From: an uncultured Alphaproteobacteria bacterium
GTDB taxonomy: Bacteria; Pseudomonadota; Alphaproteobacteria; Rhizobiales; Aestuariivirgaceae
Direction: 5' to 3'
Assembly (NCBI GenBank): GCA_937870685.1
Contig: CALMZX010000144.1
Coordinates: 859 to 64,858 of the forward strand
DNA: 64,000 nucleotides
Shown: piece after piece, positions 15,543 through 30,400 of the stretch
How positions within the stretch are numbered: the first letter of the stretch is position 1
How the letters are laid out: the number at the start of each line of letters is the position of its first letter
Translations under genes and position numbers: made by a program
Notes under the pieces: generated by a model
Database searches by the model: none
What the model was told of the DNA's origin: nothing
What the model saw: only the letters and a program-made list of their open reading frames with translations

Positions 15543-16001
15543 TCAGGCCTGCAATTCATCGGGGCAGGTGGAGGCCAAGCCCTGTACGGAACCCCGGGCC
15601 GTGTAGTCCGAGCGCCTGCCGGTTTCCAGCGCCTCGCGCTCCGTGTCGGCTGCGGCGTAGAAGTCAAAGCAGTTGGCGCTCACCTGCACGATGCGGAAAC
15701 AGCCGCCGTTCATGGCGGTGTAGAAGGTGCAGAAAAGGTTGTTGATGACAGACCATTGGCCTGTGCTCACGGTGCGCGGGTCCCAGTAGTCGATGGCGCC
15801 CCCTGCATGATAGCTCTCGCGGAAGGCCAGTCCGTCGCGATAGGCCCCGGCCACGGTCTTGCCTTCGAAGGCGGTGATGATCTCTGGCCCTTGCAGCAGC
15901 CTTGCCTCCGGCGGTCTTGTCTTGCCCTCCGCCAGCACCAGAAGCAGCAGTGGCAGCGCCAGTGACAATGCCGTCCGGCTCAGGCTTCGATGATCTTCCA
16001 T
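15543..16001 (-). CDS. Hypothetical exported protein
   Basis: Hydrophobic signal-like segment, then a beta-rich domain with three Cys (GQWSVINNLFCTFY..GGCF..NCFDFY). Start uncertain. Confidence 0.6.
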   Translation of the reverse strand: MEDHRSLSRTALSLALPLLLLVLAEGKTRPPEARLLQGPEIITAFEGKTVAGAYRDGLAFRESYHAGGAIDYWDPRTVSTGQWSVINNLFCTFYTAMNGGCFRIVQVSANCFDFYAAADTEREALETGRRSDYTARGSVQGLASTCPDELQA

Positions 16002-16396
16002 TCGTGGGCAATCTCCGCCGTCTTTTCAAACATCTTGGAAGCTGAACAATATTTTTCCGCCGAAAGTTTGACGGCGCGCTCGACCACTGCCGGTTTCAGG
16101 CCGTGGCCCTTGAAGGTGTAGATGAGCTTCACCTTGGTGAAGACCTTGGGGTCTTCGGCGGCGCGTTCGCCATCCAGTTCGATCTCGCAACCCGTCACCT
16201 TCTCGCGGGCCTTTTCGAGGATCATGACAACGTCGAAGGCGGTGCAGCCGCCAAGGCCGAGAAGCAGCATTTCCATGGGGCGCACGCCGATGTTGCGGCC
16301 ACCCGCTTCCGGTGCCCCGTCCATGACGACGGCATGGCCCGACCCGGACTCACCCAGAAAGGCACGGCCGTTGATCCAGGTGACTTTGGCTTTCAT
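15980..16396 (-). CDS. OsmC/YhfA family protein
   Basis: MKAKVTW...SGSGHAVVMDG...RPMEMLLLGLGGCTAFDV...SAEKYCSAS. Confidence 0.9.
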   Translation of the reverse strand: MKAKVTWINGRAFLGESGSGHAVVMDGAPEAGGRNIGVRPMEMLLLGLGGCTAFDVVMILEKAREKVTGCEIELDGERAAEDPKVFTKVKLIYTFKGHGLKPAVVERAVKLSAEKYCSASKMFEKTAEIAHEWKIIEA

Positions 16397-16486: not shown

Positions 16487-16756
16487 ATGGCTACAGTGCA
16501 CTTCACCTCCAACCTGAGGCGGCATGTGGATTGCCCGCGCGTCGAAAGCACCGGTGGCACGGTGAAAGCCGTGCTCGACGGGGCCTTCGCGAGCAATCCG
16601 CAACTGCGCCACTACATCCTTGATGACCAGGGTGCGTTGCGCAAGCACATGCGCATCCTGATCGACGGCCAGGCCATCATTGCCCGTCACCACCTGTCAG
16701 ACATCGTTACCCCCACGTCTCAGATCTGGGTCATGCAGGCCCTCTCGGGAGGATAG
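16487..16756 (+). CDS. MoaD/ThiS ubiquitin-like (beta-grasp) protein
   Basis: 89 aa; GGTVKAVLD, ILDDQGALRKHMRILIDG, C-terminal ALSGG. Confidence 0.88.
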   Translation: MATVHFTSNLRRHVDCPRVESTGGTVKAVLDGAFASNPQLRHYILDDQGALRKHMRILIDGQAIIARHHLSDIVTPTSQIWVMQALSGG

Positions 16757-16759
16757 GAA

Positions 16760-17863
16760 ATGGCACGCAGCGTCATGGTTTCCACCCGCAAGGGCCTGTT
16801 CGAAGTGAGCAAGGGAAGCCGTGGCTGGGGCGTGCGGGAGGCGCATTTCATCGGTGACAACGTCACTCTTTCGCTCCACGACCCGCGGGACGGCACGGAC
16901 TATGCTGCCCTCAACCACGGCCACTTCGGCATCAAGCTGCACCGGCGCGACAAGGGCAAGAAGCGCTGGAAGGAAATCACCACGCCGGCCTATCCGAAGA
17001 AGCCCGAGACGCTGGTGGACCTCGATGGCTGGGGCAAGCCGGTGAACTGGAGCACGCAACTGATCTGGTCCATGGAAACGGGCGGGCCGGACCAGAAGGG
17101 CACGATCTGGGTCGGCACCATGCCGGGCGGGTTGTTCCGCTCCACCGACCGTGGCCAGTCCTGGGAGCTGATGGAAAGCCTGTGGCGGCATCCCAACCGC
17201 AACAAGTGGCTGGGCGGCGGGGCCGACATTCCCGGCATTCATTCCATCTGCGTTGATCCGCGCGATCCTGACACCGTTCGCGTCGCCATTTCCTGCGGCG
17301 GTGTCTGGGTGACGAAGGATGCGGGTGAAAGCTGGGTGCAGTCGGCACACGGCATGCGCTTTGGCGATGGCCCGGAAGAGGGGCTCACTGATCCCGAAAC
17401 GCAGGACCCGCACATGATGGTGCAATGCGCCGCTGACCCGTCAACGTTCTGGGTGCAGCACCACTACAGCATCTTCAAGTCGGTGAACGACGGTGTCAGC
17501 TGGAAGGAAGTGAAGGCCAAGCCGTCATCGTTCGGCTTCGCTGTTGTCGTGCACCCGAAGGACCCGGACACAGCGTGGTTCGTGCCCGGTATCAAGGATG
17601 AAAAGCGCATCCCCGTTGGGGGAGCACTGGTGGTGACGCGCACCAGTGATGGTGGCAAGACGTTCAAGAGCCTGACCAAGGGCCTGCCGCAGAAGCACGC
17701 CTATGACGTGATCTTCCGACACGGCCTCGCCATCGACGACACGGGCAAGCGCCTCGCCATGGGCTCGACCACCGGCAACCTGTGGATCAGCGAGAACGGC
17801 GGGGATTCGTGGAAACTGGTGAGTTCCACCCTGCCTCAGGTCTATGCGGTGCGCTGGGTGTAG
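16760..17863 (+). CDS. BNR/Asp-box repeat beta-propeller protein (no signal peptide evident)
   Basis: Repeated Asp-boxes: STDRGQSW, TKDAGESW, SVNDGVSW, TSDGGKTF, SENGGDSW. Confidence 0.88.
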   Translation: MARSVMVSTRKGLFEVSKGSRGWGVREAHFIGDNVTLSLHDPRDGTDYAALNHGHFGIKLHRRDKGKKRWKEITTPAYPKKPETLVDLDGWGKPVNWSTQLIWSMETGGPDQKGTIWVGTMPGGLFRSTDRGQSWELMESLWRHPNRNKWLGGGADIPGIHSICVDPRDPDTVRVAISCGGVWVTKDAGESWVQSAHGMRFGDGPEEGLTDPETQDPHMMVQCAADPSTFWVQHHYSIFKSVNDGVSWKEVKAKPSSFGFAVVVHPKDPDTAWFVPGIKDEKRIPVGGALVVTRTSDGGKTFKSLTKGLPQKHAYDVIFRHGLAIDDTGKRLAMGSTTGNLWISENGGDSWKLVSSTLPQVYAVRWV

Positions 17864-17870
17864 GGCACTT

Positions 17871-17898
17871 TCTCCCTCCCCCTTGCGGGGGGATGGGC
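17871..17898. repeat. Short GC-rich palindrome (REP-like, CCCTCCCCC-TTGC-GGGGGGATGGG)
   Basis: Hairpin immediately after the propeller stop; similar to the hairpin at 30021-30044. Confidence 0.55.
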
Positions 17899-17948: not shown

Positions 17949-18422
17949 ATGAACAAGAACACCATCTGTCTCTGGTACGACCATGATGCCGAGGCAGCGG
18001 CCCGCTTCTATGCCGCCACGTTTCCCGACAGCAGTCTGGACCGCGTCGTCCACGCCCCGGCGGACTATCCTGACGGCCAGCAGGGTGCGGTTCTCTTTGT
18101 GGAGTTCACGGTCTGTGGCGTGGCCTGCTCCGGCATCAATGGCGGCCCGCATTTCAAGCAGAGCGAAGCCTTCTCATTCCTGATCCAGACCGAAGACCAG
18201 GCCGAAACCGACCGCTACTGGAACGCCATCGTGGGCAATGGCGGGCAGGAAAGCCAGTGCGGCTGGTGCAAGGACAGGTGGGGCGTCTCGTGGCAGATCA
18301 CGCCGCGCATCCTCATGGAGACCATGGCGAAAGGCGGCGACCCCGCCCGCCGCGTCTTCGAGGTGATGATGCCCATGCGGAAGATTGATATAGCCACGAT
18401 CGAGAAAGCGGCGCGGGGGTGA
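17949..18422 (+). CDS. VOC/PhnB-like family protein
   Basis: NTICLWYD, INGGPHF..SEAFSF, DQAETDRYW, CGWCKDRWGVSWQITP. Confidence 0.9.
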   Translation: MNKNTICLWYDHDAEAAARFYAATFPDSSLDRVVHAPADYPDGQQGAVLFVEFTVCGVACSGINGGPHFKQSEAFSFLIQTEDQAETDRYWNAIVGNGGQESQCGWCKDRWGVSWQITPRILMETMAKGGDPARRVFEVMMPMRKIDIATIEKAARG

Positions 18423-27469: not shown

Positions 27470-30400
27470 ATGAGCCGCTATGCCGAACTCGCCACAGCCA
27501 CGAACTTCTCCTTCCTGCATGGCGGTTCCCATGCCGAGGAACTGGTGTTGCAGGCCAAACACTTGGGGATCGCGGCGCTGGCCGTGACTGACCGCAACAG
27601 CTTTGCCGGAATCGTCCGGGCCCACGGGGCGGCGAAGGATGCGGACTTGCGCTTCGTGGTTGGCGTGCGGCTGGTGCTCGAGGACGGATGCGAACTGCTC
27701 GCCTGGCCCACGGACCGGCAGGCCTATGGCCGCTTGTGCCGCCTGCTCTCGCTGGGGCAACGGCGGGCGGAAAAGGGCGGCTGCATCCTCGCGCTGGCGG
27801 ATGTCTGTGAACATGCTGAGGGCACGCTCTTCGCCCTGCCACAGGCGCATGTGGCGCAGCTGGGGGACGTGCGGCGGCTGCTTCCGGCGCCACTCTATCT
27901 GGCGCTCTCCTGCCGCTTCGATGGCCGCGACCGCACCCGGCTGGCGGAGGCGGCCGCCGTGGCGCGGGCACAGGGCGCAGGCCTTCTGGCCGTGAATGAC
28001 GTGCTCTATCACCATCCGGACCGCCGCCCCTTGCAGGACGTGCTCACCTGCATCCGCGAGAAGGTGACGATTGCCGAGGCGGGCTACAGGCTGCAGGCCA
28101 ATGCCGAGCGGCATCTCAAGACGCCGGATGAAATGGCGCGGCTGTTCCGGGATTATCCCGAAGCGCTCGCCAACACGCTTGTGATCACGGAGGCCTGCCG
28201 CTTCTCGCTCGATGAACTGCGCTACGAATATCCGGAAGAGCCGGTGCCACAGGGCCAGGATCCGCAAGGCTATCTGGAACATCTGGCGCGGGAAGGTGCC
28301 ATGGAGCGCTATCCGCAAGGTGTTCCCGCCAAGGTGCGCCAGAACATCGCCAAGGAACTGGCGCTGATCCGCAAGCTCAACTACGCGCCCTACTTCCTCA
28401 CCGTTTATGACATCGTGCGCTTTGCCCGCAGCCTTGATCCGCCGATCCTCTGCCAGGGGCGGGGTTCGGCGGCCAATTCCACGGTCTGCTATGTGATCGG
28501 CATCACGGCGGTTGATCCCAACCAGATCGATCTCCTGTTCGAGCGCTTCATCTCGGAGGAGCGCAAGGAACCGCCGGACATTGATGTCGATTTCGAGCAC
28601 GAGCGGCGCGAGGAGGTGATCCAGTATCTCTACCGCCGCTATGGCCGGGAGCGGGCAGGCCTCGCCGCCACGGTGATCACCTATCGCGGGCGCTCGGCAC
28701 TGCGCGAGGTGGGGAAAGTGATGGGACTTTCGGAAGACGTGACCGGGGCACTCGCCGGCTCGGTCTGGGGCATGATGCCGGAGGAGATGCAGGAGAAGCG
28801 GCTGAAGGAGATCGGGCTTGATCCGGATGATCCGCTGCTCGCCCGCGTGCTGGAACTGACGGGCGAGATTGCCGGCTTCCCGCGCCATCTCTCGCAGCAT
28901 GTGGGCGGCTTCATCCTGACACGCGAGCGGCTGGACGAGACGGTGCCCATCGGCAATGCGGCCATGGAAGACCGCACCTTCATCGAATGGGACAAGGACG
29001 ACATTGACACGCTGGGCATGCTCAAGGTGGATGTGCTGGCCTTGGGCATGCTCACTTGCATCCGCAAGAGTTTCGAGCTGATCGAGGCCTGGCACGGGCA
29101 GCGCTACATGCTCGCCACCGTGCCGCGCGAGGACCGGACTGTGTATGACATGCTGTGCAAGGCCGACTCGGTCGGTGTCTTCCAGGTGGAATCGCGGGCC
29201 CAGATGAACATGCTGCCGCGCCTCAAACCGCGTTGCTTCTATGATCTGGTGATCGAGGTGGCGATCGTGCGGCCCGGCCCGATCCAGGGTGACATGGTGC
29301 ATCCCTATCTCAGGCGGCGCGATGGCATTGAGGCGGAGGATTATCCGGCACCGCATCCGGACTTCGGGCCGCCGGATGAATTGCGGCAGGTGCTGGGCCG
29401 CACCAAGGGTGTGCCCTTGTTCCAGGAGCAGGCGATGAAGCTCGCCATGGTGGCGGCGGAGTTCACACCTGGCGAACTGAACGAGTTGCGCAAGGCCATG
29501 GCCACCTTCCGGCGGCGCGGCACCATTGGGCGGCTGGAACAGAAAATGGTGAGCCGCATGGTGGAACGCGGCTACGATGCCGGCTTCGCGGCGCGCTGCT
29601 TCAACCAGATCAAGGGCTTCGGCGAATACGGCTTCCCGGAAAGCCACGCCGCGAGCTTCGCGCATCTGGTCTATGTCTCGGCCTGGCTGAAGCGCCACCA
29701 CCCGGCAGTGTTCGCCTGTGCGCTGCTGAATTCACAACCCATGGGCTTCTATGCCCCGGCGCAGATCGTGCGGGACGCGCGCGAGCATGGGGTTGAGGTG
29801 CTGCCGGTGGATGTGAGTCATTCGCAGTGGGATTCGGTGCTGGAGGAAAGGCCCCCCTCAGTCCTTCGGACAGCTCCCCCAACAAGTTGGGGGAGCGTGA
29901 TGAAACGCCCTCCCCCAGCTTTGCTGGGGGAGGTGCCCAACGGGCGGAGGGGGTCCCTTTGCCTGCGCCTCGGCTTTCGTGAGGTGGATGGGGTGCGGGA
30001 GGGGGATGTCGTGTCCATTCTCCCCTCCCCGCAAGGGCGAGGGAGGACAACAACACTGGCCGAAATGGCGGCGCTTCTCCCCCACTCCGCCCTCGAAAAA
30101 CTCGCTGCTGCCGATTGCTTCCGGTCGCTGGGTCTCGACCGCAGGCAGGCGTTGTGGGAGGTGACGGCGCTGGCCAAGGCGCGGACTCCCTTGCCGCTCT
30201 TCGCCCATGCTGATGCGAAGGAGCAGGGCATGGAAGCAGCGGTGCAACTGCCGGAGATGCCGCTCGCCGAGCATGTGGTCAACGACTACCAGACGGTGAA
30301 GCTGTCGCTGAAGGCGCATCCCATGTCCTTCCTGCGGGGGCGTTGTGCGGCTGAAAAGGTGACGGACAACGGCGTGCTCAAGTCGCTGCGCAATGGCCGC

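Follow-up and report, generated by a model that had tools for sequence, protein, structure and literature searches.

A CysO/SAMP1-type ubiquitin-like protein paired with a cytoplasmic seven-bladed Asp-box beta-propeller across bacteria and archaea

Why should a gene for a ubiquitin-like protein ending in Gly-Gly stand directly in front of a gene for a beta-propeller? The question is raised by a 64,000-nucleotide (nt) stretch of contig CALMZX010000144.1 (assembly GCA_937870685.1) from an uncultured alphaproteobacterium of the Aestuariivirgaceae, the whole of which we call the window. On its forward strand, an open reading frame (ORF) at 16487..16756, closed by the stop codon TAG, translates into an 89-amino-acid (aa) beta-grasp protein of the CysO/SAMP1/MoaD type (hereafter the Ubl, for ubiquitin-like protein). 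The next ORF, at 16760..17863 on the same strand, encodes a 367-aa seven-bladed Asp-box (BNR) beta-propeller of the 3B7F family, as judged from the ORF, Pfam, a match in the Protein Data Bank (PDB) and an AlphaFold2 (AF2) model. The first-pass annotation, which worked from the letters alone, had suggested an uncharacterised sulfur-relay or protein-tagging module. We have little doubt that the two proteins form one functional unit, a dedicated CysO/SAMP1-type Ubl with a 3B7F-family propeller. What chemistry the unit might perform is a more tentative matter, and several explanations are weighed below.

The arrangement at the locus is tight. Only 3 nt separate the TAG of the Ubl gene from the propeller ATG at 16760, and both the ORFs and the sequence bear out the annotated picture of a Ubl 3 nt upstream of an Asp-box propeller without a signal peptide. 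The two terminal Gly codons of the Ubl (G88-G89, GGAGGA, 16748..16753, forward strand) form a Shine-Dalgarno-like sequence 6 nt 5' of the propeller ATG. Because these codons resemble a ribosome-binding site for the propeller, the two genes appear to be translationally coupled. In most related loci the gap between the two genes is -4 to 8 nt.

How far does the pairing extend? Overall, the two genes were adjacent, in either order, in about 180 of about 195 evaluable loci. The pair spans more than 10 phyla and was seen in Pseudomonadota, Actinomycetota, Acidobacteriota, Chloroflexota, Gemmatimonadota, Planctomycetota, Verrucomicrobiota and three archaeal lineages. The survey comprised four sets. 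In genome contigs of close relatives together with Polyangiaceae, Granulosicoccaceae and Poriferihabitaceae, all 41 of 41 loci carried a QALSGG-ending ORF of about 90 aa directly upstream. An even sample of 301 Pseudomonadota genomes contained the propeller in 19 (about 6%), always in single copy, and the Ubl adjoined it in 17 of the 18 others; in a Pseudomonadota subfamily of about 30% identity the order is inverted, the propeller preceding the Ubl. Distant relatives, found with alignment A2 against genome contigs, had an adjacent Ubl ending in [S/A/T]GG at 63 of 80 loci, and of the 17 loci lacking one, about 5 are truncated by a contig end; this set includes Bathyarchaeia, Nitrosopumilales, Thermoplasmatota, Chloroflexota, Acidobacteriota, Gemmatimonadota, Planctomycetota, Verrucomicrobiota and Methylomirabilota. 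Finally, a search of Thermoleophilia, Gaiellales and Thermoanaerobaculia with query P0182 returned a Ubl at 56 of the 56 loci examined. The propeller family itself is large, with at least 7,910 homologues in the protein collection and 348 clusters at 50% identity with E <1e-30, and occurs in Pseudomonas, Cupriavidus and several archaeal lineages. Since adjacency recurs in about 180 independent loci, the pairing is more than chance.

In 12 loci of this last, Actinomycetota/Acidobacteriota set, the two genes are joined in frame as Ubl-linker-propeller fusions, with linkers of 5-25 aa after ISGG. These fusions come from different assemblies and share 57-89% identity, so that they do not stem from one assembly error. 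Around the pair, the 145 nearest flanking genes fell into 154 Pfam families, the commonest of which (YCII) was found six times. Because no flanking family is conserved around it, the module is self-contained, and the neighbourhood survey proposed at the outset thus recovered a real and widespread two-gene unit. Such recurrence, by adjacency or fusion and in both gene orders, is hard to reconcile with the reading that the Ubl is a spare MoaD, ThiS or CysO of a known pathway next to an unrelated propeller or an ordinary glycosidase.

We then ask what kind of carrier the Ubl is. Its N-terminus reads MATVHFTSNLRRH and its C-terminal end ...VMQALSGG. Taken alone, the window Ubl stays below the cut-offs of the family models (Pfam ThiS, PF02597: 18.7 bits, cut-off 22.5; NCBIfam SAMP1: 41.2 bits, cut-off 60). 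A pairwise BLAST comparison with Mycobacterium tuberculosis CysO is not significant (E 0.067), the link being seen via profiles only. The profile of the Ubl's own clade (A7) matched solved structures of SAMP1, CysO and MoaD or MoaD-related proteins at E values of 7e-6 to 3e-4, among them a SAMP1 homologue (7e-6), the CysO-like 4n6e_B (5e-5) and CysO (3e-4). A family profile of 23 propeller-linked Ubls (A6), searched against solved structures, retrieved M. tuberculosis CysO (3dwg_C, 6e-21) and the CysO-like carrier crystallised with BexX (4n6e_B, 8e-21) ahead of the SAMP1 homologue (2l52_A, 1e-12) and a MoaD-related protein (1v8c_A, 1.5e-11). The beta-grasp fold found by profile and the C-terminal Gly-Gly both agree with the ThiS/MoaD/CysO/SAMP superfamily (PF02597), and the ORF and clade profile confirm the original description of an 89-aa beta-grasp protein with an -SGG end. 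A fused homologue modelled with AF2 has the pattern beta-beta-alpha-beta... in its Ubl domain, at a predicted local distance difference test score (pLDDT) of 92-98. Judged by these matches, the Ubl is assigned to the CysO/SAMP1 branch of sulfur carriers.

R52, G88 and G89 never vary in the Ubl family (alignments A6 and A7), whatever the architecture; R52 is part of the motif ...LR.H.N.F..G. The Gly-Gly was found in each Ubl across all locus sets and lies at the very C-terminus in about 90% of them. Because it is invariant in all homologues examined, an objection that the first-pass annotation had raised against itself, namely that the Gly-Gly might not be conserved, falls away. In a maximum-likelihood tree, MoaD is set apart from the propeller-linked Ubls with 96/88 support and the window's QALSGG clade is recovered with 96/86 support. 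The same tree places propeller-linked Ubls and CysO types in one clade with an unresolved backbone, and monophyly of the propeller-linked Ubls with respect to CysO was not upheld.

The best NCBIfam and PDB matches of the window's clade are to SAMP1. This is a point for another explanation, protein tagging of the SAMP/Urm1/TtuB type, in which the Ubl would be conjugated to target lysines and the propeller would act either as receptor or ligase or as isopeptidase or processing hydrolase. The module is present in archaea, and SAMP conjugation is known in archaea. On the other hand, E2, JAB and a dedicated E1 (activating enzyme) are missing, unlike in all prokaryotic conjugation operons of PMC1779556. 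E2 and JAB genes were absent from the flanks and E1 genes were found there in 3 of 208 loci, a composition that is not that of the E1-E2-JAB conjugation and defence operons. A search with PADLOC gave no match, which argues against tagging and led us to reject a reading as a defence system.

The genome that contains the window has carriers and activating enzymes of its own. Its canonical MoaD is encoded at C31:44417-44668 and its sole MoaE at C3:2336-2791; its only ThiF-family gene, a MoeB-type E1 without a rhodanese domain, lies on contig C56, and the window itself on C144. The absence of E1 and MoaE genes near the pair, as first reported, therefore holds, both being on other contigs (ThiG was not searched for). 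With moaD, moaE and moeB of its own in the genome and the tree split described above, the Ubl is not the housekeeping MoaD, a candidate we rejected; the same facts count against a spare carrier. The moaD gene follows pgsA, which in turn follows uvrC (C31:43776-44668), and precedes a pseudouridine-synthase-like gene; the assembly has moaD and moaE apart, on different contigs. A third MoaD-like Ubl with Gly-Gly (...LMPRIPGG, Pfam ThiS 35.2 bits) is encoded at C144:89066-89299, about 24 kb past the end of the window and about 270 nt after a 754-aa ORF (C144:86536-88800) whose N-terminal sequence looks like a molybdoenzyme of the xanthine-dehydrogenase/aldehyde-oxidase family. In total, the genome encodes three distinct Gly-Gly Ubls and one ThiF-family E1. 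Because there is a single such E1, the window Ubl, if activated, must use the housekeeping enzyme.

In a few lineages the E1 lies closer. An archaeon with a separate MoaD-MoaE pair (L091) has an E1 of the MoeZ type, ThiF plus rhodanese, immediately beside the Ubl, and two Gemmatimonadaceae loci (L110 and L153) have the order propeller, Ubl, ThiF-rhodanese E1. We rejected E1 linkage as a general neighbourhood signal, given that it amounts to these 3 of 208 loci. We also examined 11 genomes whose propeller lacks a Ubl beside it (one, L089, comes from the Pseudomonadota sample); 10 of them encode a CysO-type Ubl at another site. Of these CysO-type loci we inspected seven, which are ordinary sulfur-carrier clusters that combine JAB and ThiS-ThiF-rhodanese fusions with CysM or ThrC-like pyridoxal-phosphate (PLP) enzymes. 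The propeller might conceivably share a carrier in such genomes, and CysO-type Ubls in ordinary CysM/JAB/MoeZ clusters would also suit the spare-carrier reading. In two Acidobacteriota loci (L251:4001-5461 and L252:4001-5437), the canonical CysO is fused to the N-terminal end of its own E1 in one ThiS-ThiF-rhodanese protein; CysM adjoins this gene in both, and a JAB peptidase gene adjoins it in L252.

What is the propeller? By inspection, its N-terminus (MARSVMVSTRKGLFEV...) contains no hydrophobic signal sequence, and on that sequence the protein is predicted to be cytoplasmic. Its Pfam matches are limited to the generic BNR repeat (30.3 bits) and Sortilin-Vps10 (44.8 bits), both above their cut-offs. 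We recognised four canonical Asp-boxes, STDRGQSW (residues 128-135), TKDAGESW (185-192), SVNDGVSW (241-248) and SENGGDSW (344-351), and two degenerate ones, at residues 62-70 and at 295-302 (TSDGGKTF). A phmmer search matched residues 6-365 to PDB 3b7f_A at E 1.1e-48. The AF2 model (pLDDT 93.7, predicted template modelling score (pTM) 0.92) has 28 strands in seven blades, closed by a 'velcro' of N- and C-terminal strands. Foldseek superposed this model on 3B7F with a TM score of 0.87, a root-mean-square deviation of 2.8 and 32% identity. This full-length match of sequence and fold places the protein among the single-domain seven-bladed Asp-box propellers of the 3B7F type. The fold matches that come after 3B7F are GH74, DAIP, sortilin Vps10, and Ycf48 in complex with a D1 peptide. 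The 3B7F entry itself (YP_299179.1, Ralstonia eutropha JMP134) comes from structural genomics and was deposited as a 'putative glycosyl hydrolase'. In an Asp-box survey, the same protein (Reut_B4987) is described with seven blades and five Asp-boxes and its function is listed as 'not known'; that survey does not mention its Ubl partner (PMC2716378).

Databases label the propeller 'exo-alpha-sialidase' and 3B7F 'glycosyl hydrolase, BNR repeat', names that speak for the spare-carrier reading. We examined whether they are justified. Sialidases are six-bladed, and GH74 enzymes are built of two propellers. A GH33 sialidase was rejected because the model has seven blades, no GH33 member is among the top 50 fold matches, and inspection finds no signal peptide. 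A GH74 xyloglucanase was rejected too, as the propeller is a single one of 367 aa and the GH74 fold matches reach query and target TM scores (TMq and TMt) of at most 0.65 and 0.34. The F510_1955 glycosylhydrolase model (NF045728) scores 53.9 bits against a cut-off of 175 bits, and none of the glycosidase family models in Pfam and NCBIfam reaches its cut-off on the protein. The two names are a systematic misannotation, which is corrected here. A probably cytoplasmic, single-domain, seven-bladed propeller below every glycosidase cut-off, together with the distribution of the pair and the carriers in the window genome, makes it very improbable that the Ubl is a spare carrier beside an unrelated or glycosidic propeller.

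In a comparison of 55 propeller sequences of 29-87% identity to the window protein, eleven polar residues vary little or not at all: T9, K11, H144, H161, Q215, H218, Q233, H235, R283, R320 and D326. They map to the starts of the A-strands, which are the innermost, or to B-C and D-A loops, of successive blades. By propeller convention, such loops form the top-face mouth of the central channel, the usual place of active or binding sites. By topology alone, the invariant residues look like a ring around this mouth, a predicted pocket. Several propellers also carry histone-H1-like basic C-termini rich in Lys, Arg, Ala and Pro (about 115 aa in P0142; also L103, L112, L113, L117, L119 and L126). These tails could hint at binding of nucleic acid or another polyanion.

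Which mechanism would join a carrier to such a pocket? The explanation we favour, although we would put it at somewhat less than an even chance, is a two-component enzyme akin to MoaD-MoaE, ThiS-ThiG and CysO-CysM, in which the Ubl would be activated in trans and its tail, lodged in the propeller pocket, would be used on a substrate. First, the ...SGG tail would be adenylated, and probably thiocarboxylated, in trans by the general E1 of the genome, here the MoeB-type enzyme on C56 and in other lineages a MoeZ-type enzyme with a rhodanese domain. The tail would then enter the conserved pocket, where the central channel opens on the top face. There His144, His161, His218, His235, Gln215, Gln233, Lys11, Arg283 and Arg320, possibly with a metal, would apply the activated C-terminus to the substrate.

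Several points weigh against this mechanism. The activation by E1, the thiocarboxylate, the docking of the tail in the pocket, the catalysis and the substrate are all things that we infer. The Gly-Gly lies inside the polypeptide in the 12 fusions, and about 10 Ubls, mostly of a kinase-fusion clade, carry 1-17 extra residues after it. No JAB peptidase was found near the pair among the 145 flanking genes by Pfam. For these fused and tailed forms, a free C-terminus must come from some protease or is not needed. An E1 gene is next to the pair in only the three loci named above; at the level of 12-kb segments the frequency of E1 genes is no higher than chance, and nothing but the direct juxtaposition stands out. 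A natural Ubl-linker-propeller fusion (L182, alignment A5), modelled with AF2, shows no confident docking: both domains fold well, but the pTM is 0.76, whereas the propeller by itself reaches 0.92, and the pLDDT is below 50 in the tail and the linker. Last, about 12 Terriglobales-type loci encode a propeller fused to a Ser/Thr kinase (about 700 aa in all, Pkinase 177.8 bits), with the Ubl gene immediately downstream; such a fusion is more typical of a sensor or binding domain.

Taken together, these observations direct attention to a non-covalent regulatory or receptor pair. The propeller would then carry the Ubl as a permanent subunit or ligand, whose Gly-Gly tail would provide only flexibility or plug the pocket, with no E1 chemistry at all. 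The propeller itself would act in sensing or binding, and the fused kinase or other partners would respond to its state. We regard this reading as possible, although on balance doubtful. Fusions with linkers down to 5 residues that keep the Gly-Gly within the chain, the short tails after it, the kinase fusions with a Ubl gene directly downstream, and the lack of E1 and JAB genes in nearly all neighbourhoods would all be expected of such a pair. Among the fold relatives, Ycf48 has been crystallised in complex with a D1 peptide, and sortilin likewise binds the C-termini of peptides with no chemical reaction.

Nevertheless, the Ubl retains the hallmark of E1-activated carriers, a Gly-Gly that is strictly invariant in all architectures and usually terminal, and it is close in sequence to CysO, a true sulfur carrier. 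Along with the E1-rhodanese gene adjoining it in three loci, including the operons of Gemmatimonadaceae, these features lend indirect support to E1 chemistry and speak against a purely non-covalent role. So does the predicted pocket, whose four invariant His, two Gln, two Arg and Lys resemble a catalytic or metal site more than a groove for Gly-Gly; these residues are fully retained in the kinase-fused propellers. As for the fusions, carriers in fused form have a precedent in MoaX, a MoaD-MoaE fusion that is cut at its Gly-Gly.

The fused and tailed Ubls also bear on protein tagging. Being precursor-like, they would need a processing enzyme, no JAB is at hand, and the His-rich pocket could be a metallohydrolase site. 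Yet most Ubls already end in Gly-Gly, which would leave a dedicated processing enzyme usually idle, and we know of no propeller of the 3B7F family that is a peptidase. With the missing conjugation genes, this makes tagging improbable.

Some architectures near the pair merit description in their own right. The kinase-propeller fusions are found at L103:5086-7191, L114:5083-7191 and about 10 similar Acidobacteriota loci (L105, L108, L121, L124, L127, L128, L135, L139, L142 and L150), with the kinase N-terminal and no transmembrane segment between the two domains. At L114:7192-8307 the Ubl frame runs past the Gly-Gly into an ABC-transporter ATPase, and at L124:6810-7844 into a PNPOx-like domain. 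These extended Ubls may be true fusions or may reflect lost stop codons in metagenome assemblies. Directly 3' of the Ubl, three Acidobacteriota loci carry a gene for MiaE, the tRNA ms2io6A hydroxylase (L112:7431-8000, L113:7433-8002 and L154:7481-8023). Genes with YCII domains recur beside the pair, downstream of it in L143, L157, L160, L166 and L169 and between or after the two genes in L134, L136, L144 and L163; five YCII loci also have an extracytoplasmic function (ECF) sigma factor bearing DUF6596, and in Pyrinomonadaceae a 243-aa secreted double-YCII protein is encoded between propeller and Ubl. As parts of the module, YCII with ECF sigma (five loci) and MiaE (three loci) were rejected, being too few and too lineage-bound.

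The genes that flank the pair in the window were correctly described at first. A PF06983/PhnB-like gene (17949-18422, 159.6 bits), which we take to have the vicinal oxygen chelate (VOC) type of fold, begins 85 nt downstream of the pair. An OsmC/YhfA-type gene (15980-16396, minus strand, PRK10738 151.6 bits) is divergent, with exactly 90 bp between its start codon and that of the Ubl. Only a single close relative has the VOC gene behind the pair. The OsmC gene is retained upstream in 25 close loci, all within the family, and never in distant taxa. The suggestion that these neighbours belong to the module was thus not sustained, as they are not kept in distant taxa; we regard both as local synteny only. 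A promoter consensus scan at the locus found none, and terminator-like sites occurred at chance expectation. Beginning 13 nt past the propeller stop lies a GC hairpin, CTCCCCC-TTGC-GGGGGGA (17876-17893), whose folding energy is not better than that of shuffled sequence. It has a look-alike with 3 mismatches at 30024-30041 and may be kin to the CCCCCTC/GGGGGAG repeat family of the window.

What would the pair mean if it is a carrier with its enzyme? To our knowledge, the partner types of ubiquitin-fold carriers are so far a handful: MoaE, ThiG, CysM, BexX, TtuA/Ncs6 and TfuA. The propeller may be a new class of partner enzyme, a His-rich and possibly metal-bearing hub that takes the CysO-like (thio)carboxylate and makes a sulfur metabolite or modification, although this we consider speculative and less than probable. 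If it were true, an ancient pathway common to bacteria and archaea would have gone undescribed, and in some lineages a Ser/Thr kinase would be coupled straight to its chemistry or to whether the carrier is loaded. The propeller would then be a new type of carrier partner, and its substrate could point to a sulfur metabolite, a modification or a signalling switch that is new. Given that a crystal structure of a family member exists (3B7F), the question is tractable in laboratory strains. The first-pass annotation described the pair as widespread and without an assigned function, and this agrees with about 180 loci and no function found in the literature searched. Full-text searches, whose coverage of the literature is incomplete, found no paper linking a ThiS/MoaD/CysO-type protein to a BNR/Asp-box propeller. 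Surveys of prokaryotic Ubl neighbourhoods mention no propeller partner (PMC1779556, PMC1949818, PMC2948915), and a propeller-containing neighbourhood is not among the Ubl operons of the first of these.

How, then, does the pair compare with known systems? MoaD-MoaE, too, is a two-gene system, in which one protein is a Gly-Gly carrier and the other accepts the carrier's tail; its E1, MoeB, works in trans, and natural fusions of carrier and partner occur (MoaX). The difference is that the propeller has no similarity to MoaE. CysO-CysM (M. tuberculosis, 3DWG) and CysO-BexX (2-thiosugar, 4N6E) also combine a Gly-Gly carrier with a larger partner protein, but their partners CysM and BexX are a PLP enzyme and a ThiG-like TIM barrel, whereas here the partner is a beta-propeller. 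As in the BexX system, the E1 gene is mostly found away from the pair, and the enzyme is a shared one. MoeZ loads CysO, a thiocarboxylate sulfur donor, which CysM uses and the JAB protease Mec frees (PMC8280819). The Mec/JAB gene is part of that system and has no counterpart in the neighbourhoods of the pair, where neither PALP nor JAB is among the top families of the 145 flanking genes; the pair is accordingly not placed in the CysO-CysM-Mec pathway, and canonical CysO clusters coexist elsewhere in some propeller-carrying genomes. On the side of the propeller, fold searches and Pfam Sortilin-Vps10 point to Ycf48 and sortilin Vps10. Both Ycf48 and sortilin bind peptide tails through propeller arginines, but they are lumenal or extracellular and have neither a Ubl partner nor the His cluster; with 12.9 bits against the 326-bit NCBIfam cut-off, identity with Ycf48 was rejected and the likeness is at the level of fold only. 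By analogy, therefore, the pair would resemble MoaD-MoaE, ThiS-ThiG and CysO-CysM in outline, with another partner fold and no pathway genes alongside: a carrier-partner pair in which the propeller would be an undescribed class of partner.

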